Assembly: GCA_965204745.1 (NCBI GenBank)
Contig: OZ242010.1
Coordinates: forward strand, 1,984,001 to 2,048,000
Length of the DNA: 64,000 nucleotides
Direction: 5' to 3'
Source of the DNA: Candidatus Latescibacterota bacterium
GTDB lineage: Bacteria > Latescibacterota > UBA2968
In this document: positions 4,300 through 39,280 of the stretch, piece after piece
How positions within the stretch are numbered: position 1 is the stretch's first letter
Layout of the letters: every line of letters starts with the position of its first letter
Translations under genes and position numbers: made by a program
Notes under the pieces: model-generated
What the model was told of the DNA's origin: nothing
The model's database searches: none
Seen by the model: only the letters and a program-made list of their open reading frames with translations

Positions 4300-5427
4300 T
4301 CACGCCAAACAGCGACGCAACTTGGGGGTATCTCCCAAAGCACGAAGAAAAATACCCCGTGCGCCGTTGATATCTCGATCCATCGCCTGACCATCTATTC
4401 TGCTACGAATGACCCGCGCACCACCTAACTTCTTCACCACCTCGCCTGTCCAACTGACCGTCTTGGACGTGTATGCCTCGTTCACATCCAAAACCAACTT
4501 GCCCATCTCAAATGCCTTGTGCTTCAAAAACTGCTTGAAACGATAATGAGCAAACGTCAAAAGACTACGGACAGACTTGCTACGAAGACAACGCTGACCA
4601 CGAACAACCATCTCGCTCGTACCAAAGGTCGGCAACAAGATCACATCATAATTGTCAACCAACCAACGAGACACCTGCTTGTGTAACTCATCGACCAAAT
4701 CACGTATCCGACAACGCATACGCTTAATCGCACGACCAAGACGACTCCTACGATAACCCTTCGCCCTCGCCTTACGACCAATCACCCCATCAAGATGAAC
4801 ACACAAACGATGTACCTGACCAAAATCGCCCTCGCCAATCTTACCACAACCATTTTCAGAATAGAACGTCAAGAAACTACGAATACCCGGATCAAGTGCC
4901 ACAACACGCCCTTGAGTCTCGGCTACGCACCGTGGACTTGAATAAGGCACAGTAACATAGTACCGGCCATTGTAACTCACAAAACGACCATCCCTCGGTA
5001 CAACAGACAACGGCTCCGACAAACGAATATCGCCAAGACTGCGAGGATAGATCGCCGTCAAATCCTTATTCCACGCATCCTTGCTCAAAACAAACGACTG
5101 CATAGGATTCTTGCGACTGCGAAAATGTAACTTAACCTTACGCTTTATACCTTTATCCTTCAAATCCTTACGCTTCTTCTTTACCGCCTCATGTGCCCGA
5201 TACGCATCCGTTATCGCACCATTTAATACCCTACAAGGCACATCCCTAAATCGCTTAGGCATCACAGCACGCACGATATCACGCATCTCATACTCATGAA
5301 GAGAAAAACCCAAACGATACAATGACACGGCCTCGTTATACATCCAACGACTACCTGACATCCATAACTTGACCAACTCACGCTGGTCACTTGTCAGATA
5401 GACTCTTATCTTTCTTGATTTTGTCAC
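4300..5427 (-). CDS. tnpB: TnpB RNA-guided endonuclease (IS607-associated, pro-Fanzor-like)
   Basis: RuvC motifs ALDPGIRSF, NEAYTSK, DRDINGARGI; N-terminal KSRKIRVY...QRELVKLW; start uncertain (GTG at 5427; frame is open to 5853). Confidence 0.9.
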   Translation of the reverse strand: MTKSRKIRVYLTSDQRELVKLWMSGSRWMYNEAVSLYRLGFSLHEYEMRDIVRAVMPKRFRDVPCRVLNGAITDAYRAHEAVKKKRKDLKDKGIKRKVKLHFRSRKNPMQSFVLSKDAWNKDLTAIYPRSLGDIRLSEPLSVVPRDGRFVSYNGRYYVTVPYSSPRCVAETQGRVVALDPGIRSFLTFYSENGCGKIGEGDFGQVHRLCVHLDGVIGRKARAKGYRRSRLGRAIKRMRCRIRDLVDELHKQVSRWLVDNYDVILLPTFGTSEMVVRGQRCLRSKSVRSLLTFAHYRFKQFLKHKAFEMGKLVLDVNEAYTSKTVSWTGEVVKKLGGARVIRSRIDGQAMDRDINGARGIFLRALGDTPKLRRCLA

Positions 5428-5959
5428 GATACTTGCGGAGTCCGTACAGCCGACAAGAGAACGGATGGAGCATGGACAAAATATCTTCCGTGAGTTCTTG
5501 TTCCGGACTGCAACTTGACTCGTCGAGAACCACGACATCGCCCCCGTTTTGCTTTGCCAACCAGTCAATAAGTTCAAAGCCGAACCGTGCAAGACGGTCT
5601 TGGTGGGCAACCACAATGCGCAACTTCTCTCCGCCGTGTAAGCGTTCCAATAGGGCAACAAGGCCTTTCCGCTTCCCGTTGAGACCTCCCCCAATGTCTT
5701 TGACGATCTCTGCGCCGGGATAACGGGATTGAAGCGCGACTTGACTTTGCAAGTCATCTCTTTGTCCGTAACTGCTGACACGGGCGTAGCACACAACGGC
5801 AACGCCAACGGATTCCCGCAAGAACGCATCGACATTGTATAACCTCTTTCCACCTAGACTACGGATATGCTCAATCCGACCACCATTTGCCCACCTTCTC
5901 AACGTGCTCGGATGAACCCCAAGCAAAGCAACAGCCTTGCGAGTATTTACATAAGACAT
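5387..5959 (-). CDS. tnpA: IS607 TnpA serine recombinase
   Basis: MerR-like HTH (LGVHPSTLRRW), YARVSS catalytic motif, DRLARFGF. Confidence 0.93.
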   Translation of the reverse strand: MSYVNTRKAVALLGVHPSTLRRWANGGRIEHIRSLGGKRLYNVDAFLRESVGVAVVCYARVSSYGQRDDLQSQVALQSRYPGAEIVKDIGGGLNGKRKGLVALLERLHGGEKLRIVVAHQDRLARFGFELIDWLAKQNGGDVVVLDESSCSPEQELTEDILSMLHPFSCRLYGLRKYRDKIKKDKSLSDK

Positions 5960-6759: not shown

Positions 6760-7995
6760 ATGGTTACATGGGATTGGACAAAAAATACTTGGGAATGCGA
6801 TGCGTGTGGCGCATCGGACAATCACGCCCTCGCCAATTTTTGCGCTCGGTGTGGGGCTTTGATCACGGATAAAGTCGTCTCTGTTGCGGCGCCTCCAAGC
6901 CCTTCGGAAGACCACCAGCCCGAGGAACATTTGGTTCTGCTTAGAGGGCCCGATGTGCTTTTGAACATCTTTGGCGTTGCATTGGTCGGAAAGAAAGCGA
7001 CCGGGAATATGACGGCTTTTCCCGATCCCCTCCGCGAAAGCAGTTCTTTTGACCTTCCCCACATGGACAAAGGGATCGCGCAAGTCCGTTTTGACCAAGG
7101 GTGGGTCTATGTTCTGGATGCTCTGGGCACGCTTTTTGTTTTTCCGACATCGGCACTTCGCGACGGGTCTATGGCTCGGAGTACCAAATGGCGGCGTTGT
7201 GCTGAAAATGTACACAAATTTTGGTCGTTCAAAGACAGGCTGATCGTCCTCGGCGAAGAAGGCCGGGAGATAAAAATGGGGGCGAGACCAGCCGTACAAA
7301 ATTTTTGGCGAGAAAAGGAGATGGGTTACGAACCGCAAAAAATAGAATCGCCATTTGAAGTTGAAACGCTGGTCCCGCTCCAGGGCGGGGATTTTCTGGT
7401 GGCTCTCGTGGGAAATAACCAAATGGCCTTGTTGTCCGATGAAGGTGTTTCCGATCCGTACGAGGGATTTGTAGATGGAGACCCTTGCATAGGCGCAAAC
7501 CGCGAAGGCATGCTCCGCTTGGCAACCACACTGGAAAATCGCGAGGTTAGGGTGGTTTCCTTTCAGCGCGATACCACGCAACTCCTTCCAGACGCCATAC
7601 CCGATTTACGAGCGACAGCCCTTCGCACCATAGATATCGATGGTCGAGATTGGTTTGTCGCGGTGACGAGTGATGGCATCCATTTGATAGACCCCTTGAA
7701 TCGCAATATCGCGGCAAGCCGCGAGGTTTTCATGAAGCCGGCGGATATGTGTGCCTCTTTTGGCAATCTCGTTGCGGGCTTTCAAGACGATGAAGACCCG
7801 GCCGGGTCGTCTCAAATGGCGTTGTTCCGGTTTGATCGTCACGCTATTTCTCGCTTGCACGCTTGGTCACTCAAGCCAGGGCTTAAACCCGTGACTGCGC
7901 CGGCGGGTTTTGGGCATGGCTTGTATGTGTTGATGCAGGAACGAAATCTCACAACGCTGTGCTGTTACGCGCTCTGTGGAGATGGAAGGGGTTAG
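6760..7995 (+). CDS. double zinc-ribbon protein with beta-strand-rich (propeller-like) C-terminal region
   Basis: CDACG...NFCARCG at N-terminus; first gene of the co-directional cluster. Confidence 0.7.
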   Translation: MVTWDWTKNTWECDACGASDNHALANFCARCGALITDKVVSVAAPPSPSEDHQPEEHLVLLRGPDVLLNIFGVALVGKKATGNMTAFPDPLRESSSFDLPHMDKGIAQVRFDQGWVYVLDALGTLFVFPTSALRDGSMARSTKWRRCAENVHKFWSFKDRLIVLGEEGREIKMGARPAVQNFWREKEMGYEPQKIESPFEVETLVPLQGGDFLVALVGNNQMALLSDEGVSDPYEGFVDGDPCIGANREGMLRLATTLENREVRVVSFQRDTTQLLPDAIPDLRATALRTIDIDGRDWFVAVTSDGIHLIDPLNRNIAASREVFMKPADMCASFGNLVAGFQDDEDPAGSSQMALFRFDRHAISRLHAWSLKPGLKPVTAPAGFGHGLYVLMQERNLTTLCCYALCGDGRG

Positions 7996-7998
7996 GCT

Positions 7999-9705
7999 AT
8001 GATACGAGTTATTTTTTTGAGCCTGTTGTGCGCGTTGACCTCATCGGTGGATGCACAACAGGTCAGCATACAGGTCGATGGATCCGGTTCTATGGCTGGT
8101 TTCGACAACAGCGCGGAACTCGGTACCTTGGTCGATGTCTTGGAAAAGGCGTGTGAACGGGCGGGCATGCCCTCAGAGACGGTCTTTTTTGTTTCCACCC
8201 GGTCAGATACCGTCGCTTGGCGCGATGCAGAGCGTTTTCAAAAGACAAAGGCGTGGGGGGGATATACCAATCTCGAAGCGGCGTTTAATACGGGATACGA
8301 TAGGGCGCCGATTGTGATGATGCTGACGGACAATGTTCAGGCGGCCAGCGACTTGGACGCGCGAGCACTTTATGCTTGTTTTGCCCGCGATACCATCGAG
8401 GTCTTGCGGGCGATTCCCTTGAAGCGAAGGTTTGCGGGGGTGCTATCCAATCCCCTGCCGGATAGGGGACGGGATGCGTTGCGACGCCTGAATCCGAATG
8501 CCGAAATCCAATTCCGATCAGACGGTCGGCTTTACTACAAAGGGATGAAGGGGTTCGTCCTCTATTTGTTTTTGACACAGGCGCGCTATCGATCCCAATA
8601 CGAGCACCTCGTCGCAGCCTTGCAGAAAGAGGGTATGGAGCCGATGGCGATGAAGCCGATTGACGATGCGATTATTTTGAATCGCGGCGCGATCAGGCCC
8701 ATCGTCGTATCCTTGGACAAAAGAAATCAACTGCGTTTTAATTTTACACTGGAGTCGCGGCTCGAGCATATCAATATCGAACCCTCGGAATCGGAAAATT
8801 CGGATGTGCGGTTCAAAGTCCAGTCCCCGCAAGTCCATGCGCGCAGGGTTGAAGACCGCATGTTATTGGGCCGCCGGTCTTCTCACTACGGCCGGGTCAG
8901 CCCGCCAACACTCATCGACACGCTGTCGTCTGCCGCCGAGCATACTTCTGTCTATACCTGCCTGGTACACTTTGGCCCTTTTCGGCCCGGGCATCAAAAT
9001 TTTTGGGAGTACTTAAGCCTCGCCCGAATCGGCCCTGTGCCTGCGGATTATTTTTTTTCTGTCGCAATCGAAATCCCGCCGCATTCGTTTCGCATGACCC
9101 AGGCTTACAAAGAGCGATACTTCACGGACCAGCCGGGTGTGTTGGATCGCATCTATACGCCTGCGGACCTCATCCAGTACCTCCACCAGCAACCCGCAAC
9201 CGTCGTGCCCCGGGATGGGACTATTTCTGGCGAGCTACGAGTCTCGCCCCTCGTAGGCCCTTGGATCGCGTGGATAGCACTTTGTCTCGTTTTGATAGGG
9301 GTGGTTGGCACACTGGTTTGGATCGCGTTTTATCCGATAAAATACCGGCTTACAGACAGCTTGAATCAAGTTCAGGAGCATGTGGCGCGACCTCTGCATC
9401 GGCCGGTTGATCTCAAAATTTCAAATGCCGCAGGCGACGAGATCGGTTTGGGAACGATTGAGCGACGCGCTGTTTTTCGGTTTGTCCTCTGCCCGGATGA
9501 GGGCGTTCGGGTGGAAGATGTTTTGGGCAATGATCTGGTGGAAGAATTGAGGGCGAGAGGAGGGGAAGATGGCGACGCGCAGGATCATAACGGTGCAGAG
9601 GAAGAACAGAAAGAGATTGAGGTGTTGTTAGAGCCGGGTAAGGTGTTGACCTTGGAAAAAGGCGATCTGTCGGTGGATCTCGAGCGCGTGGTTGCGCGAT
9701 TTTGA
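7999..9705 (+). CDS. membrane-anchored vWA-like protein
   Basis: Signal peptide; MIDAS-like DGSGS, TNLEAAF, LTDNVQ; one TM helix (WIAWIALCLVLIGVVGTLVWIAF); acidic C-terminal domain. Confidence 0.7.
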   Translation: MIRVIFLSLLCALTSSVDAQQVSIQVDGSGSMAGFDNSAELGTLVDVLEKACERAGMPSETVFFVSTRSDTVAWRDAERFQKTKAWGGYTNLEAAFNTGYDRAPIVMMLTDNVQAASDLDARALYACFARDTIEVLRAIPLKRRFAGVLSNPLPDRGRDALRRLNPNAEIQFRSDGRLYYKGMKGFVLYLFLTQARYRSQYEHLVAALQKEGMEPMAMKPIDDAIILNRGAIRPIVVSLDKRNQLRFNFTLESRLEHINIEPSESENSDVRFKVQSPQVHARRVEDRMLLGRRSSHYGRVSPPTLIDTLSSAAEHTSVYTCLVHFGPFRPGHQNFWEYLSLARIGPVPADYFFSVAIEIPPHSFRMTQAYKERYFTDQPGVLDRIYTPADLIQYLHQQPATVVPRDGTISGELRVSPLVGPWIAWIALCLVLIGVVGTLVWIAFYPIKYRLTDSLNQVQEHVARPLHRPVDLKISNAAGDEIGLGTIERRAVFRFVLCPDEGVRVEDVLGNDLVEELRARGGEDGDAQDHNGAEEEQKEIEVLLEPGKVLTLEKGDLSVDLERVVARF

Positions 9706-9720
9706 ATGGGAGAGTTGGCG

Positions 9721-10764
9721 ATGGCGACATATCTTTTGGGGGTAATCCCTTGGTTGCTTTTTGTTTTGTCGGGGTGCGGTGGGGGATATACGGGCGACAA
9801 CACGGCTTCGCGGATTGCCGAGCAGGAAGGCCCTGCTGTGGCCTTTGTGGTGGTTGAGAGAGAGGGGGGAAAGAGTCAAGGGTCGGGCATTGCCATCGAT
9901 GGGGCACAAGGTCATTTTCTGACCAACTGGCATGTGATTCAAGGCATGCGCGGACGCAAAGGGTGGGTGCGCGTGCAAGGCGCGGAGTGGATGCCCATTG
10001 TGGCCCTTGTGGCAAAAGACGAGCATAAGGACCTCGCGATTGTGAAGGCCGATTTGGGTGCGCAAGTCATCCACGAGGCGCGTTTGGGAAGCGTGACCGG
10101 GATAAAACCAGGAGATCCCGTGGTCGCGATTGGCAACCCGTTGGGCGAAGAATTTTCCGTCACCGATGGCATCGTCTCGCAAATACGCAATCAAGAGGGC
10201 TATAAGGTCGTTCAGACGACGGCGCCCATCTCGCCGGGCAACAGTGGCGGCCCCTTGTTTAATGAACTGGGCGAGGTGATAGGCGTTGTGACATTTACCA
10301 AACAAGATACGGCGAGGCTCGCCCAAAATCTCAACTACGCCGTGGCAATAGATGAAGCCAAACCTTTGCTGGGCAAAACGGATTACGAGTATAAGGTCGT
10401 GCCCGGCGTCGCCCCGCCGGATTACCTATCGCCCTCTCGGCTGTCCGTTTTATCGGGTTCGCTCAGGTGGGTTTTGTTGGGGATCATCATCGTTGGGATT
10501 TACTCATTTTCAACGCATGTGATCTTCAGATCCCTCATCAGAAATCGAGATCGGAGTCCCAATCAGGCGTTTGGTCTTTCGGCGGTGATTACGTTTTTGG
10601 GAAGCGCGTTGACCATCGTCTTTTTCCTCAGCGGATATTTGGATTATTTGCTGGGTTGGCAGACCACGTACGCCAAAGCCTTTTTCTGGTGGTCGGTCAT
10701 CATTTTTGTGATCGTCCTTGTAATCACTATTTTCATGACACGTACTCAGCGTCGAGAAAATTGA
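9721..10764 (+). CDS. trypsin-like (S1C/HtrA-type) serine protease with C-terminal TM helices, no PDZ
   Basis: Catalytic triad motifs TNWHV, DLAIVK, ISPGNSGGPL; lipobox-like VLSGC; three hydrophobic C-terminal segments. Confidence 0.9.
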   Translation: MATYLLGVIPWLLFVLSGCGGGYTGDNTASRIAEQEGPAVAFVVVEREGGKSQGSGIAIDGAQGHFLTNWHVIQGMRGRKGWVRVQGAEWMPIVALVAKDEHKDLAIVKADLGAQVIHEARLGSVTGIKPGDPVVAIGNPLGEEFSVTDGIVSQIRNQEGYKVVQTTAPISPGNSGGPLFNELGEVIGVVTFTKQDTARLAQNLNYAVAIDEAKPLLGKTDYEYKVVPGVAPPDYLSPSRLSVLSGSLRWVLLGIIIVGIYSFSTHVIFRSLIRNRDRSPNQAFGLSAVITFLGSALTIVFFLSGYLDYLLGWQTTYAKAFFWWSVIIFVIVLVITIFMTRTQRREN

Positions 10765-10777
10765 GCTGATGTCTTAA

Positions 10778-10929
10778 GAAGCTATCTCAAAATTATTGGG
10801 ACCTATCCCCCTAGCCCCCTTTCCTAGCAGGAAAGGGGGAATAAAGTCCCCTATTCTTGGGTTTTAATCTGCGAAAAGCGAATGTTTTTGCGGCTATTCA
10901 ATGGCGGTCAGGATTTTTAAGATGGCTTC
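10778..10929. mobile_element. small MITE family B (~152 bp)
   Basis: Imperfect TIR GAAGCTATCTCAAAA / TTTTAAGATGGCTTC flanked by TTAA on both sides; encloses one REP-like hairpin. Confidence 0.6.
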
Positions 10930-10944
10930 TTAAAACGAACTGGA

Positions 10945-11115
10945 ATCTGGCCCCTTCTGAAAGGGGATGAAGCAGATCGGTTTTGCGAGGGATTTGAGGT
11001 TTTTCATGGCCTTCTCCACACGCATCAAAGCCATCGCGCACAACCCTTGCATTCATCTATCGATCAAGCCTTGCTCCCCTTTCCTTGTAGGAAAGGGGCC
11101 GGGGGATAGGTCCCA
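10945..11115. repeat. REP-like doublet (CCCC...TTCC..GGAA.GGGG hairpins)
   Basis: Reverse-orientation relative of 39083-39280 and of the core of MITE copies 2-4. Confidence 0.75.
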
Positions 11116-11139
11116 AATCAAACACTTTGGAGGCAAACC

Positions 11140-14100
11140 ATGATGGAAACAGGAGCGACAGCAGAACGCATTGGCGGCGCGCAACGGGGAGAGGATCGAG
11201 TCAGTATCAGGCCAACTGTGCTGATCGGGTTGGGAGGTACGGGTAAGGAAGTGTTGCGGCGTCTCAGGCGGATGTTTTACGAAAAGTACCGGATGCCGGG
11301 CCTGCCCGTGATGGAGTTTCTCTGGTTTGATACGGACATCCGCAATATCGACATTACGAGAAAGGAAACGGATTTGCTGGATCGGCGCATCGATTTTTCG
11401 GCTCGTGAAATGGTGGATGGCAGTGTTGGGCCGCAAGAACTCGAAGCATACCGCAAAAACAAAGGGATGTACCCCCATATCTGGTCGTGGTTTCCCGATG
11501 CGCTTGACAGCCTTGCCTCGGATGCGATTACCCAGGGCGCAGGGCAGATTCGACCATGTGGGCGGTTGGCGTTTTTCCATCACTATGCCAAACTCCGCAT
11601 GGAGATCGAAAACAAAATCAAGCGCGTTCAAAGCGCGGATGCCGAGACAGAGATGAAACGGATGTTTCCCGACTACGATGCCGACTCGAATGATCTGGAA
11701 ATCGTGCTCGTCACGTCTATCGCTGGCGGGACGGGTTCGGGTTCGTTTATCGACATGGGCTTTCTGTGTCGAGACCTCGCCCCCAACGCCGTTAGGACAG
11801 CCTACTTGGTGTTGCCTTCTGTTTTTGATGGGGTTATAGGTGGAGCACGCCAGACGCCGCGGGCGAATGGGTTTGCCGCCATCAAGGAACTCGAACACTA
11901 TATGAAGCCTCGCTTTGATGCCCAAGGCAGTGATGGTAGCCGTCATACGACGCATATATTTGAGTGGGATGGCAGGCCGCACGAGGTCTCCGCGCCTCCG
12001 TTTTCGACCGTGTATTTGCTGGATGACAGAAATTTTGCTGGAGTCCGCGTTGAAGATTTTACCGATGTGTTTCAGATGATCGCCGAATTTCTGTTGCTCG
12101 ATTTCGATCAGACCCGGTTTGCGCTAGACAAGCGCAGTGTGCGCTCCAACATGGAGCAATTTTTACAGGAAGTCGCGACGTATAAAAACGATCATTACGT
12201 CCAGTACTTCCCGTGTCGATATGCCTCATTCGGTCTGTCGCAAATGGAGATCAACCAACCCCGCCTCGCCAATGCGGCATCCAATCGGTTCGCGCAGTAT
12301 TTGGTGGACTTTATCATCGCAGAAGAGAATGAAGTTCCCGCAGGATTTTCCACAGCCGATGTGTTGCCCCAACTAGCACAACTCGAGCTCACGGCAGACC
12401 GGCTGATCGGCCTCGCGTTGAACCGCCCGGGAGCAGATTTTACGCTCGCCGATGATGCTATCACTAAAAATTTGTCACCGGTTTTTGACGATCTTCAGCA
12501 GAAAATTCGGAAAGCACCCGAAGCGCGGGAAGTTGCGGTACTCGAAAATCAAGTGGCAGAAGCCAAATCAACGGTTGAAGGCATAACCCTTGAAATACAA
12601 CGAGAAGTGGCAGAAAAGCTCAAAGAGGAGGGAACGAGCAAAGGGGATGATATCAAACAGATCATCGACAATATTGACCGGCTGATTCCAAAGTTGGAAG
12701 ACGGATTAGAAGATTATTGTATCGGCTTGCTCTGCGATCCGATGGAATGTGGGCCCAACTATGTGGTCAGTTTCTTACAATACGGCAAGGAGGCGTTGGA
12801 AGGCGTGCTTGAGGAGTTGACTCGGCTGGCGAATGAGCCGATGGAAGGCCCCAAAGTTCCCGCTATCGACGTCGCGTTTTCAGAAGACTTTCATCTCTTT
12901 GACCAGCGGTTGAAAGAGGCGCGGGATATTCCTTTGGCTTGGCAAAGCAAAAAAATCGCGGTGCGTTACTACGAGGGGAAGAAACAAGAGGCTTTTCGAG
13001 AATGTACCCAGAAGGTCAACAGAGACCTACTCGATCAGGTGGAGGCGACGCGGCAGGAGCTCGCCGATTGGGTGCGGAAACGCTTTCGCAAGGATGCGGC
13101 CAGATTTCTCATCGATCCCGTCAAAAGAATCATCAGCCTGTTGGGAAGCCGAGCAGAGATTGTCGGAGATGATGGCAAGATCAGTCTCAGAGTGAGCGGC
13201 ATCCAGCAACAGGTTCAAATCTTCCGGGACAATCTACGGGAGATGAGCGGTGAGTTTTCAAAGATCCATCAGGCGTATATTCGGCGCGAAACGGGTGAGC
13301 GAAACTTGAATCTCACACCTGAGTTGAACTACGCTGAGGAAATCCCCGAGCATCTCCGGCGGGATAGAGAATGGCGGGAAACCGATCTGCGGCGTCTTTG
13401 CCAAAGGGCGTTGGAAAATTATTTTCGTTCTGAGGAGGCCAAAAACATATTTGCCAATCTCGCAACAGCAGCGGGTGAGGAGATCGACCTCATCAGGGCG
13501 GGGACGCGAGAGATATTCAATCGGTCTGCCAACAGTGACCGCGCCCCTCGCGATTGGGATGGCGTGCGAGAGACGATAGATAAGTACACCTTTCGGCTTT
13601 TCAAGGATTTCAAAACGGACCTTTACGCCACCGAAGAGTTGCGGCGGCGTTTTGGTGAGCGAGAGGAAATCGTCAAGCGAAGCCAGCGGGCCGCGCCTCG
13701 GGTTTCGACCGGTCGAGAATTGCCCGGGCTGAAGGATATTTCCGATAACCGCATCGGCGGAGACGCTGACTGGGTCAATGAAGTCAATCGCATTGCCTCG
13801 CCGGCCAAGGGCGATCCTTATGAGCCAACAGAGCACAGAAACGACGCCATCGTGTTTGTGAATCAATGGATGGCATTTCCCCTTTTATCCATTGGAAACA
13901 TAGATGACATGCACCGCGATTACAGGGCAGATATAGAGGCACAGGCTGACAATGTGTATAAGCGTCACATGATCGAAAATTATTTTCAATTTGCCGATAT
14001 TCTACCGCCGCAAAGCGATAGCGAAGTGCAGGCCCTGATTCAGGCACAGCGTGCGCTGATCAATGGGTTGCTTATGGGCATTGTCAACTACGATGACAGC

Positions 14101-14562
14101 CGGAAATTTCATCGTCCGTATATGATACGGGGCATTGAGGAGATGGACCGATACGGTCACGATCTCGAGCGCGCCCGGTTGAGCATAGGAAGTAGCCACG
14201 ACAAGAAAGACCGATTGGATGGCGAGATCCGAAAGATGGAAGATCAATGGCGCGGGGAACAGCGCGATGAGCGGTTTATGCAGCGGCTCGCGCTGAAGAG
14301 TTGGTTGCTCAACGAGGTGTTCCCCAAGACCTCAATTTACGTGTTGGATCGGGAAATTGAGGATACGGATAACACGTTTCGGCGATTGTTGAAGGAGTCC
14401 TACGATGAAGATTACGATCAGATGTTGAGACAATTCGGTTTGACCGAAGGAGAATTGGATGAGAAATTGGCAATGTTGATGGCTGAACTTGGCGATTTCG
14501 CTACTCCTTTGTCGTCGTATCGAGATGAGTTTTGCGAAGCTGATATTTATGTGATGAAGTGA
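11140..14562 (+). CDS. tubulin/FtsZ-like GTPase (Tubulin_2-type) with long helical C-terminal region, 1140 aa
   Basis: VLIGLGGTG and tubulin signature SIAGGTGSG; GAGQIRPCGRLAF; ANGFAAIKEL; GGAGG RBS. Confidence 0.9.
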   Translation: MMETGATAERIGGAQRGEDRVSIRPTVLIGLGGTGKEVLRRLRRMFYEKYRMPGLPVMEFLWFDTDIRNIDITRKETDLLDRRIDFSAREMVDGSVGPQELEAYRKNKGMYPHIWSWFPDALDSLASDAITQGAGQIRPCGRLAFFHHYAKLRMEIENKIKRVQSADAETEMKRMFPDYDADSNDLEIVLVTSIAGGTGSGSFIDMGFLCRDLAPNAVRTAYLVLPSVFDGVIGGARQTPRANGFAAIKELEHYMKPRFDAQGSDGSRHTTHIFEWDGRPHEVSAPPFSTVYLLDDRNFAGVRVEDFTDVFQMIAEFLLLDFDQTRFALDKRSVRSNMEQFLQEVATYKNDHYVQYFPCRYASFGLSQMEINQPRLANAASNRFAQYLVDFIIAEENEVPAGFSTADVLPQLAQLELTADRLIGLALNRPGADFTLADDAITKNLSPVFDDLQQKIRKAPEAREVAVLENQVAEAKSTVEGITLEIQREVAEKLKEEGTSKGDDIKQIIDNIDRLIPKLEDGLEDYCIGLLCDPMECGPNYVVSFLQYGKEALEGVLEELTRLANEPMEGPKVPAIDVAFSEDFHLFDQRLKEARDIPLAWQSKKIAVRYYEGKKQEAFRECTQKVNRDLLDQVEATRQELADWVRKRFRKDAARFLIDPVKRIISLLGSRAEIVGDDGKISLRVSGIQQQVQIFRDNLREMSGEFSKIHQAYIRRETGERNLNLTPELNYAEEIPEHLRRDREWRETDLRRLCQRALENYFRSEEAKNIFANLATAAGEEIDLIRAGTREIFNRSANSDRAPRDWDGVRETIDKYTFRLFKDFKTDLYATEELRRRFGEREEIVKRSQRAAPRVSTGRELPGLKDISDNRIGGDADWVNEVNRIASPAKGDPYEPTEHRNDAIVFVNQWMAFPLLSIGNIDDMHRDYRADIEAQADNVYKRHMIENYFQFADILPPQSDSEVQALIQAQRALINGLLMGIVNYDDSRKFHRPYMIRGIEEMDRYGHDLERARLSIGSSHDKKDRLDGEIRKMEDQWRGEQRDERFMQRLALKSWLLNEVFPKTSIYVLDREIEDTDNTFRRLLKESYDEDYDQMLRQFGLTEGELDEKLAMLMAELGDFATPLSSYRDEFCEADIYVMK

Positions 14563-14642
14563 CACACTCCCCCTTTCATTGTAGGCACAGGCGTAGCCTA
14601 CAATGAGCGAAGCGAATAACGGGGCCGGAGGGATAGGTCATC

Positions 14643-17600
14643 ATGAACAGTAACATCCATTGTCCCAGGTGTGGTTGGCGCGTTTCCCGCGAGGATCGTT
14701 TCTGCGGGGGTTGTGCGTATAAGTTGGTGATTTTGAAAGTCAGTCCCGACCCGGATGAAGACTTGGGTGGTCGTGCGTGGACAATTTTTGATGGCATCCC
14801 CATCGCGCTGAAGCTGAGAAATGCAGGGATCAATCCCATAGAAATTTCGGAGTTGTCGGCATCCGGATTCGAGATTACCCAATGGCACGGCACTATTGAA
14901 CCGCCATATACGCTCAATGTCGATGAAAGTGTGGAATTGCGTTGCTCGCATGATGCTCCCGAAGGCGGCGGCGGCCGGTTGGAGTTGCTTTCGTCGAGTG
15001 ACCCCGTCGATCTTTTTGTGCGATGCCAGAAAGCACCGGAAATTTCGCTCGCTTCACAAGATGATCATGTGTTGAGGCACGACACAGACGAACCGCAGGT
15101 GTGTGACATGAATCCTGACGAGGGACGCATCGGCTTTACCCTTTGTCACGATTCTCCGCTGATGCTTCAGGCGGCTCCTTATTTGTCTGAAGGCGAATCT
15201 CATTTTGTTTTGCGTGGATTGCCAGAGGCATTCCCCCATCAACTCTCGCCTGACCATCGCTTTCGATTTGGCTTTATTCGGCGACAGGATTTTTCCGAGG
15301 AGACTTGTCGTGCGGTTCTCAATTTTCCTTTTGATGGCTTGGGCGAGATCGTATTCGATTTCTCGGTGCGCTATGTTGAGAGGCCAAAGATCGATTGGCA
15401 GTTCAGCCGCCGATTTGTGAACGAGGACGCACTGGTATCCGGCGGAAAGGAGAAGATAGATTTCGCACTTACCATAACGCACGAGGGTGGGCCACCCCTG
15501 CGAATCGAGCGGGTTGAATCAAATCGGGAGTGGCTCGAGGTAAAAAGTCAGATAACAGATCAAAATTCCATTCTGATCGATTCCTCAAGTGCTGAAATTG
15601 ATTTGCTTCTCAATCGAGGTATTCTTCCGATAGAGCAGGCTACCGCCCTTGATGCCACGCTGGACATCGAGGGAATCCCCGTTGGGGAAGACGCAATATT
15701 CCGCGAGTCAATTTCTCTTCCGGTTCAGATCCGACCGCCCCAAGCTCTGGAGTATCCCATTGCGGTCGATTTTGGCACCACCAATTCGTGTATTGCATAT
15801 CAGGATCCCCAAGACGGAAACCGCGAGAAATTGTTGCGATGGGGGGTGGGTGAAGGCGAACTCCCCTCGGTGTTTCAGTTTTTGGCGATTGCAGAGCCAG
15901 ATGATTATTTGGACGTGTTACAGGCGTTGGGGCCTGATGAAAGGCGTACGGAGTTGAAGGAGCAGGAGGTCTTTTTGCGATTTGGCGACACGCTGACAGA
16001 CCTGCGGTTCAGTGCTGAAAATATCCCGTCCATTTCATGGGGCTTCAAACACAACTTGAGAACGCCCGACGAGAAGGTCACGCGCAACGATTTGGGCACA
16101 GGGAGCATCAGCATAAACGGAAGGCGCTATACCCGGGGCAATAGATATGTTGAGGTTGATGCGATAGAGATGGTGGGGCTTTATCTCCGTTTTCTCTTGG
16201 AGCGTTTTCAAGAGATGACGGGTTATTTCCCTTTGGAAGCGGTTTTTACGTATCCCGCGGTTTTTAACCATCACAAGGCGGCATTGAAAAAAGCCATTGA
16301 ATGGGCTACGGAAGGGATGAAGCTCGAAAAATTTATTTTGGATATCAGCGAGCCGGAAGCCATTGCCCTCGATTATGCGCTGGATCTCGCTGCGACACTG
16401 GAGCGAGGTCAAACGATTGTTTATGGCGTTTTCGATTGCGGGGGAGGGACGACGGATATTTCCATTGTCCGGTTGACTTCCCAAACCGAAGGACGTCCGG
16501 ATGTCGAGATTCTCGGTTCTGACGGGGATAATTCACTCGGTGGCAACTTGCTGTCTTTTCGGCTCGCACGATATTTGTATGCTCAGATCGTCCCGGAACT
16601 CTATCGGACACAATTCCCGTTTCCCAAGACCTTGAATGAGGCGCTGAGAAGTCAAAATGAAAATTTCATAACGCTCTATGAACTGGCGGAAAGAATAAAG
16701 GAGAATAGCAAAATACTGTCCGATTTTGAAGACGCGCTGGATGATGCCCAATCGCTTCATCCAACGGGGAAAGGCATTTTAGATCTGATTGAAGACCCCG
16801 ATATTACCGTGAACTGGCCGCGCATTGTTCTCTCGGAGACTGATGGCACCGCGCTGGAGGTCAGGGGTACGGAACGTTTGTTGGGTGAAACAAAACTCGG
16901 AGATATGGCCCCGTTGGATATCGGTGATCTCTATGACGCGGTTCGCGGGGATTTGGAAAAGGGCTTTGAGAAGCTCGATCAAATGCAGGCGTATCTGTTC
17001 GAGAAAGAGCGGATCGCCGACCTTGAATTGGATTGTCTGATTTTGGAAGGCAATTCCTCTCGTTTTCCGTTGGTCAAACGGGTTGCCGAAGAAAAGGCAC
17101 GCACGAAAAAAATTATTTTCAATCCCAAAAAATTAAAAAGAAGCGTGGCTTTGGGGAGTATCGAATACGGAGCGAGTTTGAAGGCTTTGCCGACGGGCAC
17201 TTTGCAAGGATCAAGCGATTCGAGTATCGAATACGGAGCGAGTTTGAAGGACTCCACGCGGCCGCGCATAATGGGAATACACAAATTGAATTATCCGATA
17301 TGCAGAAGTGCTTTTACCCATTTTGTGCCCATTTTTGACCGCTGGACACCTTTGAAGCCGAATACGACCATCACCCCTGAAACCCCGTCTCCCACCATCC
17401 CGACAGAAACGGCACGGGGCGAGATTGGGCTTTTTGAGTTTTTTGGATGGGATTTCAACACGCGGCTAACCCAAGGGGGAAATAGGGTCGCTGCCGCGTT
17501 GCGCGTGCCGATTGAAGATGACGCATTTCAACAGGCGCGATTTTGGACTTATTGCTTGGAATTGCGGTGCGATGCAGAGGGAAAGGCGAGCCTGTGGTAT

Positions 17601-17690
17601 AATTATCGCGTTGGCAATGAAGCGGATGGCAGTGACTTTGAACTCGTCTGGGAAGAACATCGACATTGTGCGGGCTTTTCCTATACCTAG
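14643..17690 (+). CDS. Zn-ribbon + beta-sandwich + Hsp70/actin-like ATPase domain protein
   Basis: CPRCG...RFCGGC; AVDFGTTNS, FTYPAVF, SEPEAIA, FDCGGGTTDIS, LGGN, LEGNSSRFP, SVALG; no canonical DnaK substrate-binding domain visible. Confidence 0.85.
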   Translation: MNSNIHCPRCGWRVSREDRFCGGCAYKLVILKVSPDPDEDLGGRAWTIFDGIPIALKLRNAGINPIEISELSASGFEITQWHGTIEPPYTLNVDESVELRCSHDAPEGGGGRLELLSSSDPVDLFVRCQKAPEISLASQDDHVLRHDTDEPQVCDMNPDEGRIGFTLCHDSPLMLQAAPYLSEGESHFVLRGLPEAFPHQLSPDHRFRFGFIRRQDFSEETCRAVLNFPFDGLGEIVFDFSVRYVERPKIDWQFSRRFVNEDALVSGGKEKIDFALTITHEGGPPLRIERVESNREWLEVKSQITDQNSILIDSSSAEIDLLLNRGILPIEQATALDATLDIEGIPVGEDAIFRESISLPVQIRPPQALEYPIAVDFGTTNSCIAYQDPQDGNREKLLRWGVGEGELPSVFQFLAIAEPDDYLDVLQALGPDERRTELKEQEVFLRFGDTLTDLRFSAENIPSISWGFKHNLRTPDEKVTRNDLGTGSISINGRRYTRGNRYVEVDAIEMVGLYLRFLLERFQEMTGYFPLEAVFTYPAVFNHHKAALKKAIEWATEGMKLEKFILDISEPEAIALDYALDLAATLERGQTIVYGVFDCGGGTTDISIVRLTSQTEGRPDVEILGSDGDNSLGGNLLSFRLARYLYAQIVPELYRTQFPFPKTLNEALRSQNENFITLYELAERIKENSKILSDFEDALDDAQSLHPTGKGILDLIEDPDITVNWPRIVLSETDGTALEVRGTERLLGETKLGDMAPLDIGDLYDAVRGDLEKGFEKLDQMQAYLFEKERIADLELDCLILEGNSSRFPLVKRVAEEKARTKKIIFNPKKLKRSVALGSIEYGASLKALPTGTLQGSSDSSIEYGASLKDSTRPRIMGIHKLNYPICRSAFTHFVPIFDRWTPLKPNTTITPETPSPTIPTETARGEIGLFEFFGWDFNTRLTQGGNRVAAALRVPIEDDAFQQARFWTYCLELRCDAEGKASLWYNYRVGNEADGSDFELVWEEHRHCAGFSYT

Positions 17691-18067
17691 GTCGTGTTGA
17701 CATTTTATTTTTTTAACGTTCCACACAGATTAGCAAATGTGTTGCTTGTTCATTTAAGGTGCTTCCTTTGATGGCTTCTCGCTCTGGTTGCTCTGATGGC
17801 GTTGCGCTGGGGGACCTATCCCCCGGCCCCTTTCCTACGAGGAAAGGGGAGTAAAGCTCCTTTGATGGCTTCTCGCTCTGGTTGCTCTGATGGCGTTGAC
17901 CGAGGGCATAAAGCGATTAAATATCCCTCATCAATCCCCTCGCAAAACCGCTCACAGTTCCCCCCTTCCTCGCAGGAAGGGGGGTTAGGGGGGTAGGTCC
18001 CGATAGGGCTTGATTTTCTCGATAAACCGCTCAAGCCGGTGCATGGCTCGTAAATGTCAACAGAACC
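17690..18067 (-). mobile_element. MITE family A, copy 2 (~378 bp)
   Basis: GGTCGTGTTGACATTT / AAATGTCAACAGAACC with TA on both sides; inserted in the stop codon of the Hsp70-like gene. Confidence 0.85.
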
Positions 18068-18091
18068 TAGTGATATTCGTGGAGATGAATC

Positions 18092-18898
18092 ATGTTTGAA
18101 GAACTGTTTTATCCATTATCGAGCACCATCATCTCTCTAATCGCACTTGCGTGCGTTTGTCTTTGGGTGAGAAAGCAGGTTTTGGGGTTGCGTGCAGAAG
18201 CAGAACGCAGGGAGGCAAAGCGCGAAAAGAGCGATCAGAATGCAGAAGAGGTTGAATGGCTGAAACGTTTGAAGGCAGGTCTTGAAGAGAGGGTGAGGGG
18301 CGTTGCAGAACGCGCAATAGCGGAAGAACACAGGCGCGAACTGAAAAAGCGCGTGGCGTATTTGAGGCGGTTTCTGGCGGCATTGGCAGAACTAGAAAGC
18401 GCGATGTCGGCGGAAGACCGCGTTTCTTTTGCGGTATATGTGGATCGGGAAATCGAGAAGCCCTTAAAACAGATGCGGGATCTGTTGACGCTGTGCGAAA
18501 TGCAAAATGCGTCGACGGATCCGGTGCTTTTGCTCAAGGGAGCTCTGCTCGGGGAAGAGGTTTTTAGTGCGTCTTCAATCGCGAGCCTTTTGCGGCGCAC
18601 GCGCCCCGGGCAGATGATCCGATATTTCTTGCCGGAAATTGACAGTCGCGTCACCGAGAACGGGCAGGAGAACGCGCAGCGCGTTTTTGATGGGATGACG
18701 GAATTAGGCGGGGATGAAGTGGAACTTATCGGTGCGCGCCCGGGCGCCCGGTTTGACACGAGCCAATACCAAATTGTCGGTCAAGACACGAGCGGCGGGC
18801 AACCTCGGGATAGTATTGTGAGATGCGTCGCGCACGGGCTTAAAAATGCCCAAACCGGAGAGACGGAACACAAAGCAAAAGTGATCATCGCTGGATAG
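18092..18898 (+). CDS. membrane-anchored GrpE-like protein
   Basis: N-terminal TM, coiled coil, C-terminal GARFDTSQYQIVG...SIVRCVAHGL...KAKVII resembling the GrpE beta domain (GxxFDP..H.Av...I..v...Gy......A.V.V). Confidence 0.65.
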   Translation: MFEELFYPLSSTIISLIALACVCLWVRKQVLGLRAEAERREAKREKSDQNAEEVEWLKRLKAGLEERVRGVAERAIAEEHRRELKKRVAYLRRFLAALAELESAMSAEDRVSFAVYVDREIEKPLKQMRDLLTLCEMQNASTDPVLLLKGALLGEEVFSASSIASLLRRTRPGQMIRYFLPEIDSRVTENGQENAQRVFDGMTELGGDEVELIGARPGARFDTSQYQIVGQDTSGGQPRDSIVRCVAHGLKNAQTGETEHKAKVIIAG

Positions 18899-18912
18899 GA
18901 AATAGGGCCGAT

Positions 18913-20541
18913 ATGTCCGATTTACTTTTTGAATGGAATTTTTTGGCGATTTGGCTGTTTGTTATGGGCCTAGTTTTTTTATTGGGTCTTCGGTTATGGA
19001 TAAAAATGATGCTCGAGATGAACAAATCGAGAAAAGCACTTGAAGATTTGAGGCGTTGGAGCAGAAGATATCCAGAATTTAGTGCGGGCATATACCACGA
19101 CAGGGAAGCAGCGGAGATCTCGGATCCCACTCTAAATCGCAAGACGCAGAGATGGTTGAAGCAGTTTTGGGCAGGGCATCGGCAAAATAAACCCCCAGTT
19201 GTCGATGAGGTGATCCAAAAGGAAGAAGACCATCTTTGTAGCGAGGATGATAAGTTCCGCACGATAAGCGGCAGTTTGATCATCTTGGGGCTTCTCGGGA
19301 CTTTCGTTGGACTTTATCAGGTCATTCTGCCGATACAGAGCATTATCCAAAATACGAAGGATAGTGCCACGATTACAGACCCGGCGGTAGCCGCACAGAG
19401 CATGACAGAAATGCTGAAAGACATCGGTGGGTCGCTTTCGGGGATGGAGTTTGCCTTTGTAACCAGTATTGGCGGGTTAGGTTGTATGCTTGTATTGAAT
19501 TGGATTTTTTCACGTTTCAGCAAGAAAAGGTTTGAACTGATCGATGAGTTGGAAACGTGTTGCAATGAAGAGATCGCGCCGAGGTTCAGATTGTTTTTGC
19601 CAGAGACACAGTTGGAGGAGGCGGTCAATAGAGCTTTCAGGTCTCTTGCAGATAGGCATTCGGAATTTATGGCGGGTCAGGAAGACTATATCAGAACCGC
19701 ACTCGAAGCGCATTTTGAGAAAGTATTGGCTTATCTCGAACCGCTTTTTCAAACGCTTAAAAATACGAGCGATACGTTCAACGCGGCGAGTGCTTCCAGC
19801 CATCGGACGAGTGAAAAGTGGCAGAAGACGCTCGATGATTTTGCCGAGCTGCACGCTAAATTTATGGCGACACAAAAAGAAAATCTCGAGACCGCGCTCA
19901 AGCCGCTTTTGCAAACCCTCAACAGTGCCAGCGATACCCTCGACAAGGCGACCGAGGATTGGAGCGAAACGTTCTCGCGGGGGGCCGAAGCGGTGCGCGA
20001 GTCAGGCGAGAATTTTGTAAAACACATCTCGAATTTCACCAAACTCAGCGAACCGCTGGAGGAGTTGAAAGCCGCGGTTGAAAAAATGGTTGAAGACTTT
20101 GATGGGCGGATCGAGGCTCTGGCACTGACGATGGGAGAAACCTATCAGGTGCTTCAAAAGCTCAACCCGGATGAACCCATGTATCAGCCCGTTTTTGAAA
20201 ATATAAAGGCGCGATTAGATGCCATTCACAGCACGGAACAAGCCCTTTTGAAGTTCCAGCAGGTGTCGGATGACGAAGCCGAGACAGGGATAGATGAAAA
20301 GGTCGAGGCTTTGCTCAAGGGCCTGTCGGGCGTTGAAAGTGCCATAGAGAATTTGAAGGAGACACTGGTGAAGAATTTGACCGTTGTCGATCAAACGCTG
20401 AATGATTTTCCCGAAGTTCTGCGCCAGCAAAAGCGGATTATCGGGTTGTTGACGAATATGGATGTCGCGGATCGTCCAAACAGGGTTAAGCGTTTGGCCG
20501 GTAAAGTGAAGGATTTTTTTAACCGACTTTATCTCGGGTAG
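18913..20541 (+). CDS. MotA/TolQ/ExbB-family (ZorA-like) membrane protein with long helical tail
   Basis: Three TM segments incl. ILGLLGTFVGL and GMEFAFVTSIGG; ~330-aa helical C-terminal tail. Confidence 0.85.
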   Translation: MSDLLFEWNFLAIWLFVMGLVFLLGLRLWIKMMLEMNKSRKALEDLRRWSRRYPEFSAGIYHDREAAEISDPTLNRKTQRWLKQFWAGHRQNKPPVVDEVIQKEEDHLCSEDDKFRTISGSLIILGLLGTFVGLYQVILPIQSIIQNTKDSATITDPAVAAQSMTEMLKDIGGSLSGMEFAFVTSIGGLGCMLVLNWIFSRFSKKRFELIDELETCCNEEIAPRFRLFLPETQLEEAVNRAFRSLADRHSEFMAGQEDYIRTALEAHFEKVLAYLEPLFQTLKNTSDTFNAASASSHRTSEKWQKTLDDFAELHAKFMATQKENLETALKPLLQTLNSASDTLDKATEDWSETFSRGAEAVRESGENFVKHISNFTKLSEPLEELKAAVEKMVEDFDGRIEALALTMGETYQVLQKLNPDEPMYQPVFENIKARLDAIHSTEQALLKFQQVSDDEAETGIDEKVEALLKGLSGVESAIENLKETLVKNLTVVDQTLNDFPEVLRQQKRIIGLLTNMDVADRPNRVKRLAGKVKDFFNRLYLG

Positions 20542-20547
20542 GTGGCG

Positions 20548-20715
20548 ATGAAAAGAAACCGAACCCGTAGGGATACCTCGCTGAATGTATGGCCGTCTTT
20601 TACGGATCTGATTACGTCTATTTTTATTTTTGCGATGTTTTTGCTCATTTTGATGGTCGTGCAAAACTATATCAGTTTGGTGCAGTTGAGCTACCATCGC
20701 ATTGTCGGCAGTTAA
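20548..20715 (+). CDS. MotB/ZorB-like peptide (55 aa; TM segment only, no OmpA domain); may be a truncated gene
   Basis: Not in ORF track; my translation MKRNRTRRDTSLNVWPSFTDLITSIFIFAMFLLILMVVQNYISLVQLSYHRIVGS*; WxxFxD motif plus TM, 6 nt after the MotA-like stop. Confidence 0.75.
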   Translation: MKRNRTRRDTSLNVWPSFTDLITSIFIFAMFLLILMVVQNYISLVQLSYHRIVGS

Positions 20716-20730
20716 ATTGAGGAGGATCAA

Positions 20731-21549
20731 ATGAACCGATTGACCAAAACGATGCGGCAGCAGTGGCACGAGCAGGGGTATTTGCATTTGAAAAATGTGA
20801 TTCCCAAAGCCGAAGCCGCGGCCTATCTCCACGCGGCCAACGACGTGATCGCGCAGTACGAAGCGGAAAATCCCGATGTGCGGGAGAAGGGGGTTTATAC
20901 GATCATTCAAACCCTTTTCCGAACGACCGGGATCGATGGGTTGATGGATCACCCCAATTTGTTCGGCATCATTCTCGATCTGATGGGGCCGTATCTCCAG
21001 ATTATGGGATCGCAGATTTACGTGCGCTATCCCAGCGACAAGGCCGATAATTTGCTCGGCTGGCACACCGATGCCGGGCGGTCATTGGCGCAAATTCGGG
21101 TCGCGCCGGACAGCTTGCCGCTGAATTTCAAAATCCAGTTTTTCCTGACCGATATTCCCCTGGAAAATCGCGCCAATTTCTGCTTGGTGCCCGGTAGCCA
21201 TCGCCGGACCTTGCCTAAGTTGCAACGCGATGAAACGCCGCTGGGCGCGATCCAACTGATCGCCGAAGCCGGCGATTGCGCGATTTTTCCAAATACGATG
21301 TGGCACGCGGTCGCGCCCAATCACTCGGATGTGGTGCGGCGCAGCATCACGTTTCGGTACGGGCAGATGTGGTGCCGGCCTTATGATTACGAGACGTGCC
21401 CTGATGAGGTGCTAGCGCGCATGACGCCCCGCCGCCGGCGGTTGATGGGCGACATGGGCGCGCATTACACGCCGACCGATTATTTCAAGCCGCGCGATCA
21501 GATCGAGGTGATCACGGATGGCTTGGATTTTGAATGCCCCCACGTTTAA
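20731..21549 (+). CDS. phytanoyl-CoA dioxygenase (PhyH) family Fe(II)/2OG oxygenase
   Basis: QGYLHLKNVI, WHTD, VPGSH, WHAV..N...RR motifs; GGAGG RBS. Confidence 0.9.
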   Translation: MNRLTKTMRQQWHEQGYLHLKNVIPKAEAAAYLHAANDVIAQYEAENPDVREKGVYTIIQTLFRTTGIDGLMDHPNLFGIILDLMGPYLQIMGSQIYVRYPSDKADNLLGWHTDAGRSLAQIRVAPDSLPLNFKIQFFLTDIPLENRANFCLVPGSHRRTLPKLQRDETPLGAIQLIAEAGDCAIFPNTMWHAVAPNHSDVVRRSITFRYGQMWCRPYDYETCPDEVLARMTPRRRRLMGDMGAHYTPTDYFKPRDQIEVITDGLDFECPHV

Positions 21550-39082: not shown

Positions 39083-39280
39083 GGGACCTATCCCCCCGGC
39101 CCCCTTTCCTACAAGGAAAGGGGGAGTAGGGCTTGCTTGATAGCGAACGCAAGGGCTATTTGGATGGCTTTGGGATGTGTGGATCAAGCCATGAAAACCC
39201 CCAAAACCTCTCACACAATCCCTCGCAAAACCGATCCTCGTTCCCCCTTCCTCACAGGGAGGGGGGCTAGGGGGGTGGGT
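39083..39280. repeat. REP-like doublet filling the intergenic space
   Basis: GGGACCTATCCCCCCGGCCCCCTTTCCT..AGGAAAGGGGGAG ... CCCCCTTCCT..AGGGAGGGGGGCTAGGGGG. Confidence 0.8.

Follow-up and report, generated by a model that had tools for sequence, protein, structure and literature searches.

This study was concerned with a stretch of 64,000 nucleotides (nt) from an uncultured Latescibacterota bacterium with a genome of 5.48 Mb (contig OZ242010.1, positions 1,984,001 to 2,048,000), referred to here as the window, and in particular with the eight co-directional open reading frames (ORFs) on its + strand at positions 6760-20715. These ORFs, g1 to g8, are predicted to encode, in order, a zinc-ribbon protein, a von Willebrand factor A (vWA)-like protein, an HtrA/trypsin-like protease, a tubulin-like GTPase, an Hsp70-like ATPase, a GrpE-like protein, a ZorA/MotA-like channel subunit and a shortened ZorB/MotB-like subunit. 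Transmembrane (TM) helices and topology were assigned from hydropathy. The intergenic gaps are, in order, 3, 0, 375, 80, 401, 14 and 0 nt. An initial annotation, made from the letters alone, had reported eight co-directional genes with the larger gaps filled by repeats. The genes are present at those positions, and both large gaps consist of dispersed genomic repeats with terminal inverted repeats. The repeat in the g3-g4 spacer (10765..11139) has 125 matches in its own genome and contains inverted repeats, and the same spacer in relatives measures 0-110 nt. The g5-g6 spacer (17691..18091) holds a dispersed repeat resembling a miniature inverted-repeat transposable element (MITE), with a terminal inverted repeat of 24 nt, an internal direct repeat of 41 nt and 75 matches in its own genome, many of them at 80-96% over ~300-420 nt; the relatives' spacer is ~20-300 nt. 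Because the same spacers are short in relatives, the gaps of 375 and 401 nt represent insertions into the operon and not operon borders. The two MITE-like repeat families have dozens of copies genome-wide, and further copies in the window lie near 39083-39236 and 49166-49576. Public runs matching window positions 20100-21300 carry the labels sponge or marine metagenome (20 rows from 8 studies, with half or more of the words matched in 5 rows). The g1-g8 array is a real, conserved operon that belongs to uncultured bacteria associated with sponges.

A scan of species genomes identified 15 loci in Latescibacterota and one distant locus in Bryobacteraceae. All 14 full loci have g1 to g8 in this order, and tblastn found g5-g8 in one locus on a cut contig (L006). 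The loci fall into two clades, L002-L007 at 55-85% identity and L008-L016 at 27-45%; in the far clade g6 was located by its position and a profile. Upstream flanking genes are shared with the two nearest relatives only, and downstream genes are shared with none. Since the gene order holds while the flanks differ, the conserved unit is g1-g8. At E <= 1e-20, g5 is present in 16 of 168 genomes of the phylum, namely the genome of the window, 5 of the 20 others in its genus, and 8 of 31, 1 of 15 and 1 of 3 genomes in three more genera, a count from which incomplete genomes may conceal some copies. These data bear on the reading that the genes are chance neighbours or several unrelated small operons, which we regard as having almost no chance of being correct. 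The two long spacers do break the array in this genome, and an unrelated gene for a PhyH dioxygenase (g9) begins only 15 nt past g8. However, both spacers are repeat insertions missing in relatives, the order is kept in every full locus despite changing flanks, and the core of the operon recurs in another phylum. The synteny across loci thus refutes this reading, unless the loci are assembly chimeras.

The core module was followed beyond the phylum in the best 80 of 347 confirmed metagenome stretches, whose ORFs, together with those of the locus L017 (81 loci in all), were searched with hidden Markov models (HMMs) built from 13 Latescibacterota operons. A tubulin-like gene adjoins an Hsp70-like gene in 16 of these 81 loci. 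Thirteen of the 16 extend for at least 3.6 kb downstream, and in ten of the 13 a ZorA-like gene, a ZorB-like gene or both are present in matching order, with a vWA-like gene on the upstream side; several of the ten are near-duplicate contigs, and they are not ten independent cases. The recurring core consists of vWA-like, FtsZl1 tubulin-like, zinc-ribbon Hsp70-like, GrpE-like, ZorA-like and ZorB-like genes. In the sampled loci, PADLOC models of ZorB matched with values down to 3.5e-19 and those of ZorA down to 7e-9. For example, L027 has a MotA_ExbB match above the Pfam cut-off as well as an OmpA match, and L063 has a GrpE match of 28.5 bits against a Pfam cut-off of 25.8. Five of the seven name-bearing clusters were labelled Candidatus Cloacimonadota and one Latescibacterota (L018), and three clusters were nameless. 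The G+C content ranges from 0.29 to 0.56 among five motor-bearing loci. With the HMMs used, neither g1 nor the trypsin gene was matched in the metagenome loci with the tubulin-like and Hsp70-like genes. The view of the initial annotation that the genes form one system is upheld to the extent that they are a conserved unit and that homologues co-occur elsewhere, in the 15 Latescibacterota loci and, as the core module, in Cloacimonadota-labelled and unlabelled metagenome contigs. The Latescibacterota metagenome locus L018 (13262-19104, 14503-21701) differs in carrying g1-g5 followed by three GrpE-like paralogues, with no ZorAB-like genes within 10 kb. It also contains three copies of a pair of ORFs of 109 and 304 residues, at least one with an HTH_21 match, which resemble an insertion sequence (IS).

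The central genes of the operon, g4 to g6, are those for the tubulin-like protein and the Hsp70/GrpE-like pair. The g4 product (11140..14562, + strand, 1140 residues) is a tubulin-like GTPase of the FtsZl1 type whose C-terminal part is long and helical. It matches Tubulin_2 (PF13809) at 8.2e-67 over residues 27-389, with 226 bits against a cut-off of 27. The GTP-loop motifs GGTGKE and AGGTGSG are conserved, and the gene is single-copy in its own genome. In L013 (6687-7918) an insertion of ~1.2 kb interrupts the tubulin-like gene between residues 459 and 472, which makes this locus a further case of decay in the operon. The g5 product (14643..17690, + strand, 1015 residues) comprises a zinc ribbon, an N-terminal region of ~340 residues, a nucleotide-binding domain of the Hsp70/actin fold and a C-terminal domain of ~135 residues. 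Its Pfam matches are to zinc ribbons and to HSP70, the latter at 4.4e-11 over residues 523-649 only, corresponding to profile positions 126-238 of 599. The NCBIfam models of DnaK and HscA gave 35-57 bits against cut-offs above 600. No Hsp70 substrate-binding domain is recognisable in g5, and no Pfam or NCBIfam match reaches that part. The phosphate and adenosine motifs, in turn, are invariant in 16 distant homologues. The N-terminal region is possibly Ig-like, as its look-alikes in the Protein Atlas are Ig-like families at 0.84-0.88, which we treat as a lead only. The close family of g5 is narrow: of 5.8 billion proteins, ~26 clusters match at E < 1e-170. A profile search of 1.84 billion proteins gave 47 representatives at <=1e-30 and 674 at <=1e-10, the weaker ones including ordinary Hsp70s, and a tblastn search of plasmids with g5 returned solely ordinary dnaK in five Pseudoalteromonas records.

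The g6 product (18092..18898, + strand, 268 residues) has a predicted TM anchor at the N terminus (residues 8-31), a coiled coil and, at the C terminus, a small GrpE-like domain. The last assignment was made at the level of the family, in which 18 of 35 members match Pfam GrpE (PF01025) at E <= 0.01, the best at 1.6e-8, and the C-terminal block can be aligned across both clades. A g6 profile compared with PDB sequences found coiled-coil and chance matches only and no GrpE. The GrpE-like proteins of the far clade (L008-L016, at about 13060-14120; 310-337 residues) are missing the N-terminal TM helix of the window's clade. Therefore, membrane tethering of the GrpE-like component is not universal. 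A complex prediction for g5 residues 365-880 with g6 residues 60-268 scored 0.00 and was run without controls, and it speaks neither for nor against binding. None of the g1-g8 proteins contains a Walker A motif, and the catalytic or binding motifs are intact in g2, g3, g4, g5 and g8.

The last two genes encode the putative motor. The g7 product (18913..20541, + strand, 542 residues) is a ZorA/MotA-like channel subunit; it has three TM helices, and its helical cytoplasmic tail is ~340 residues long. Its best named matches are ZorA models (PADLOC from 1.3e-8; NCBIfam ZorA_2 at 2e-9). MotA_ExbB was matched at 1.2e-4, and residues 258-513 in the tail match only coiled-coil families in Pfam. The g8 product (20542..20715, + strand) has 57 residues, of which residues 4-42 match PADLOC ZorB1 at 1.3e-4, including the TM helix with its conserved Asp. 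PADLOC thus bears out the initial view that ZorAB is the closest known match of the two genes. However, g8 had been described as a MotB-like peptide, and it is not a natural peptide but the 5' remnant of a longer gene. In all 15 relatives the ZorB-like gene encodes 207-376 residues with a C-terminal periplasmic part of at least 150 residues. The L008 protein, the relative tested for an OmpA domain, matches OmpA at 2.4e-12 and ZorB1 at 4.4e-21, and the L007 protein matches ZorB1 at 7.5e-16. The alignment of g8 to these proteins covers 57-58 residues and ends at the stop codon, so that the peptidoglycan-binding domain is absent from g8, and the lost remainder was sought elsewhere in the window with no match. 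Two further features of the relatives' ZorB-like genes were noted. In L002 (15894-17415) the gene encodes 376 residues with a low-complexity insert rich in Thr, Lys, Gly and Glu, and a gap of ~400 nt separates it from the ZorA-like gene. By eye in translations, the proteins of L003, L005, L006 and L007 (304-330 residues) apparently contain two tandem repeats of the periplasmic OmpA-like region, and those of the far clade (218-224 residues) contain one.

The junction between the ZorB-like stump and the PhyH dioxygenase gene (20712..20723) was compared with metagenome contigs from four runs belonging to four studies. In each of the four runs, one contig matches the window up to 20712 and then diverges, and the first codons beyond that point resemble the relatives' ZorB-like protein. 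The junction of the window itself is carried by contigs in X1 (record 4) and X5 (record 16, which starts 30 nt ahead of the junction). In X8 the PhyH side has other upstream sequence from 20723. One of the four runs may be the source sample, which makes them weak as independent support. Because contigs carry both the window's junction and the continued ZorB-like sequence, the truncation is a real deletion that is polymorphic, and full-length alleles occur in the same samples.

The first three genes encode the remaining components. The g1 product (6760..7995, + strand, 411 residues) is predicted to be cytoplasmic and has an N-terminal zinc ribbon (CDAC...CARC) followed by a beta-rich body of ~350 residues. 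It had been called a double zinc-ribbon protein, and only one CxxC...CxxC ribbon is present. The body is possibly a beta-propeller. Its best look-alike in the Protein Atlas is an unnamed cluster (0.90), and the NHL/SBBP propeller families score 0.80, again as a lead only, and g1 had no match in Pfam, PADLOC or NCBIfam. Orthologues of g1 are present in all 14 full loci. The g2 product (7999..9705, + strand, 568 residues) appears to be an exported vWA-like protein with a signal peptide, beta-sandwich domains, a TM helix at residues 426-444 and a cytoplasmic tail of ~120 residues. The residues of a DxSxS...T...D motif of the metal ion-dependent adhesion site (MIDAS) type (D27, S29, S31, T90 and D111) are invariant across 15 homologues, and a weak profile match to PDB entry 8s05_A (4e-4) spans this region. 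In the AlphaFold2 model (predicted local distance difference test score, pLDDT, 78.9), strands and helices alternate at residues 22-220 and are followed by beta-sandwich domains. No Pfam family matched g2, VWA included, and a Foldseek comparison of the whole model with the PDB gave TM-scores of 0.08-0.17 to integrins and Ig-like proteins, which neither show nor exclude a vWA fold. The g3 product (9706..10764, + strand, 352 residues) is a lipoprotein-type HtrA/trypsin-like serine protease (Trypsin_2, 2e-26) followed by three C-terminal TM helices, with a weak Pfam match to DUF350. It matches the Do/HtrA family models of NCBIfam at 1e-31, under their cut-offs, and its lipobox and His/Asp/Ser motifs are kept in both clades.

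The operon was compared with four known systems. First, Zorya types I-III combine ZorAB with ZorC/D, ZorE or ZorF/G (Hu et al. 2024, PMC11946911). As in Zorya, the A gene lies immediately 5' of the B gene, the ZorA-like subunit combines a set of three TM helices with a long tail, helical and cytoplasmic, and the ZorB-like subunit has one TM helix with a conserved Asp and, in relatives, a periplasmic C-terminal part. The g7 and g8 products fit the ZorA and ZorB models above other defence families. Unlike in Zorya, the two subunits are accompanied by a GTPase resembling tubulin, an ATPase resembling Hsp70, GrpE-like and vWA-like proteins, a protease and a zinc-ribbon protein, the ZorB-like gene of the window is without the peptidoglycan-binding domain that Zorya needs, and the ZorA match of the window is under the curated cut-off. 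Searches with Pfam and PADLOC agree with the initial annotation that the operon contains no ZorC/D/E, flagellar or TonB partner. The motor also raises the reading of surface adhesion or gliding-type transport, in which a proton-driven motor would run on a tubulin-like track and drive an outward vWA adhesin, comparable to Agl-Glt with MreB. Gliding is driven by non-flagellar relatives of MotAB (PMC12505986), and here a MotAB-family motor, a cytoskeletal NTPase and an exported vWA-like protein with a cytoplasmic tail stand in one module. However, the operon is without conserved outer-membrane or other gliding components, the motor is ZorAB-like with a long tail rather than of the AglRS or TolQR kind, and the only membrane in which the vWA protein is anchored is the inner one. 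We consider this reading improbable.

Secondly, operons of FtsZl1, vWA, GTPase and OmpA-family genes were predicted to be membrane-remodelling systems (Makarova & Koonin 2010, PMC2875224). They share with the present operon an FtsZl1 protein in which an N-terminal GTPase domain precedes a long helical region, a wealth of membrane proteins and an OmpA-family protein, found here in relatives. The neighbouring vWA protein of those operons, with its intact MIDAS motif, has a putative counterpart in g2. In contrast, their divergent P-loop GTPase and their protein kinases, which are frequent but not universal, are absent from g1-g8 according to a Walker A scan and Pfam. Neither Hsp70 or GrpE nor MotA or a protease is named as a partner in the text of PMC2875224, where the terms MotA, Hsp70, DnaK and protease have no occurrences, a count that leaves aside its neighbourhood tables (Additional files 5 and 6). 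Third, conflict systems built on DO-GTPase and GAP1 use either a tubulin and vWA theme or an HSP70 and GrpE theme, which are called non-overlapping, in firmicutes and actinobacteria, and tubulin and HSP70 were proposed there as multimerising effectors (Kaur, Burroughs, Iyer & Aravind 2020, PMC7159879). Those systems resemble the present operon in several respects. Their tubulins end in a helical part and go with vWA proteins that contain TM helices, their HSP70s, some of which lack the peptide-binding domain, are paired with GrpE, and they also feature zinc ribbons at the N terminus, an occasional trypsin and membrane-proximal action. The differences are that g1-g8 contain no DO-GTPase of the TRAFAC clade, with no Walker A motif and Tubulin_2 as the sole GTPase family match, that the tubulin and HSP70 themes occur together here, and that a ZorAB-like motor is joined to them; the text of PMC7159879 contains no occurrence of MotA or MotB, and 'ZorA' only as an author's name. 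No Pfam match to a GAP1, GASH or FNIII component was found in g1-g8 at E <= 0.01, although coverage of GAP1 and GASH models by the library is unconfirmed. Lastly, g5 and g6 resemble the DnaK-GrpE cycle in that g5 has a nucleotide-binding domain of the Hsp70 type, in which the phosphate and adenosine motifs are conserved, and that its putative partner contains a coiled coil followed by a GrpE-like C-terminal domain. They differ in that no substrate-binding domain was detected, that g5 carries an N-terminal extension of ~370 residues with the zinc ribbon, that there is no DnaJ, and that in the window's clade the membrane holds the GrpE-like protein by an anchor.

The initial annotation had not recognised this combination as described, a view that stands in part. 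A full-text search found no literature in which motors of the Zorya or MotAB type are joined to partners resembling tubulin or Hsp70, its coverage ending short of the source data of PMC7159879 and of Additional files 5 and 6 of PMC2875224, and a 2025 preprint on modular defence discovery contained none of the motor, tubulin or Hsp70 terms. The whole set was thus not found in full text, but parts of it were predicted in print before, namely FtsZl1 with vWA and OmpA (PMC2875224), and tubulin with vWA as well as HSP70 with GrpE (PMC7159879). What appears to be new is the presence of a Zorya-type motor, a tubulin-like GTPase and a private Hsp70/GrpE-like pair in one operon, which relates to both the FtsZl1-vWA operons and Zorya.

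The genomic context was also considered. The 58 flank ORFs of the 15 loci are mostly metabolic or housekeeping genes (glycogen debranching enzyme, sulfatases, binding proteins, TonB-dependent receptors), with two integrases. In the window, the upstream neighbours are genes for an ABC transporter, an isochorismatase, a TnpB-like protein and a CBS protein, and the downstream neighbours are those for PhyH, HisRS and AspRS. The TnpB/IS605 OrfB-like gene (4300-5853, - strand), with a Cas12f1-like TNB domain (5e-13), is flanked by the genes for the isochorismatase and the CBS protein and is unmatched in the syntenic regions of L002 and L003. The defence role put forward initially finds no support in the context, as the flanks are mostly metabolic or housekeeping. 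Such flanks fit a housekeeping-type system for membrane remodelling or vesicle formation, in which the polymer would shape or pinch the inner membrane, the Hsp70/GrpE-like pair would recycle the polymer, and the motor with an OmpA-type anchor would couple it to the wall, with no invader involved. The same role was predicted for operons of FtsZl1, vWA and OmpA-family genes by Makarova & Koonin 2010 (PMC2875224), and the catalytic motifs are all kept over deep divergence. On the other hand, just 16 of 168 genomes across the phylum have the module, as do 5 of the 20 others in the genus, its copies decay (the ZorB deletion in the window, the interrupted tubulin gene in L013 and the IS copies in L018), and the nearest known kin of its motor is the anti-phage ZorAB. 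We regard remodelling of this kind as a rather unlikely alternative.

The interpretation we prefer, tentatively and at a little less than an even chance, is that g1-g8 encode a conserved accessory machine spanning the envelope, in which a proton-driven sensor-motor governs a membrane-proximal tubulin-like polymer that is recycled by an Hsp70/GrpE-like cycle. The predicted signal peptides and TM helices suggest a layout in which the vWA-like domain and the HtrA-like protease would be periplasmic, the tubulin-like GTPase, the Hsp70-like ATPase and g1 would be cytoplasmic, and the GrpE-like protein would be tethered at the inner face of the membrane. The ZorA-like and ZorB-like proteins would together form an ion channel of the MotAB type with a long tail reaching into the cytoplasm. 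Upon disturbance of the envelope, the ZorAB-like complex would grip peptidoglycan and proton flow would rotate the tail, by analogy with Zorya. In place of recruiting a nuclease, the tail may trigger or position the GTP-dependent assembly of FtsZl1 at the membrane. The Hsp70-like ATPase and the membrane-bound GrpE-like exchange factor could then remodel or dismantle this assembly, which would give the response both a threshold and a way to reset. On the outer side, the vWA-like protein and the protease may contribute ligand binding and regulated cleavage, and the cytoplasmic tail of the vWA-like protein would relay the signal inward. Both proposed links, from the motor to control of the polymer and from the ATPase to its recycling, are suggested by analogy with Zorya and with Hsp70 cycles.

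The role of such a machine is most likely the containment of an invader or the repair of a damaged envelope. We lean towards a role in conflict, which is favoured by the patchy distribution, the polymorphic decay and the kinship with ZorAB; the ordinary flanks and the deep conservation of motifs leave envelope remodelling open. A more specific proposal is that the operon represents a fourth kind of Zorya-like system, in which a rotary proton-driven sensor switches on a tubulin-like polymer, the Hsp70/GrpE-like pair serves as timer and reset, and the periplasmic vWA-like protein and protease act as an outward sensor, in immunity or wound repair. We hold this proposal to be doubtful at present.

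Several points weigh against the envelope-spanning machine. First, the functions of the components of g1-g8 are all predictions from sequence. The vWA fold of g2, for example, is suggested by its motifs and one weak PDB profile match, the g6 protein of the window has no GrpE match in Pfam and its AlphaFold2 model is poor (pLDDT 44), and the ZorA_2 match of g7 reaches 37 bits against a curated cut-off of 100. Secondly, ZorC, ZorD, ZorE, ZorF and ZorG are absent from g1-g6 and g9 according to PADLOC, whose other matches were to the trypsin domain of RT-Protease_XI and, weakly, to PbeC, and no defence island was found in the flanks of the 15 loci, where PADLOC reported four families with one member each. 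Third, three of the 13 loci with a tubulin-like and Hsp70-like pair and enough downstream sequence (L017, L018 and L033) have no ZorAB-like genes, and thus the motor is not obligatory. In addition, the related genomes are kin, so that the locus counts overstate independence. Lastly, the copy of g1-g8 in this genome is probably impaired, as the peptidoglycan-binding part of its ZorB-like gene is deleted and two repeats lie between its genes. In Zorya, mutations in the peptidoglycan-binding domain of ZorB abolish defence, and the ZorA tail recruits effectors (PMC11946911); it is by analogy with this dependence that the copy is judged probably impaired. The working ion-driven machine of the initial annotation is therefore doubtful for the window itself.

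The operon matters for several reasons. FtsZl1 proteins have gone without a known function since 2010, and the operon offers a concrete object for testing. The transfer of a signal from ZorAB-type motors to their cytoplasmic partners is an active question on which the operon bears, and the truncated and full-length ZorB-like alleles found in the same samples provide a natural comparison. The operon also raises the questions of whether a rotary envelope sensor can control a cytoskeletal polymer and whether an Hsp70-type ATPase can recycle such a polymer. If the proposed mechanism is correct, the set of effectors served by Zorya-type motors would be wider, and these bacteria would possess a prokaryotic module of motor, cytoskeleton and chaperone for immunity or wound repair.

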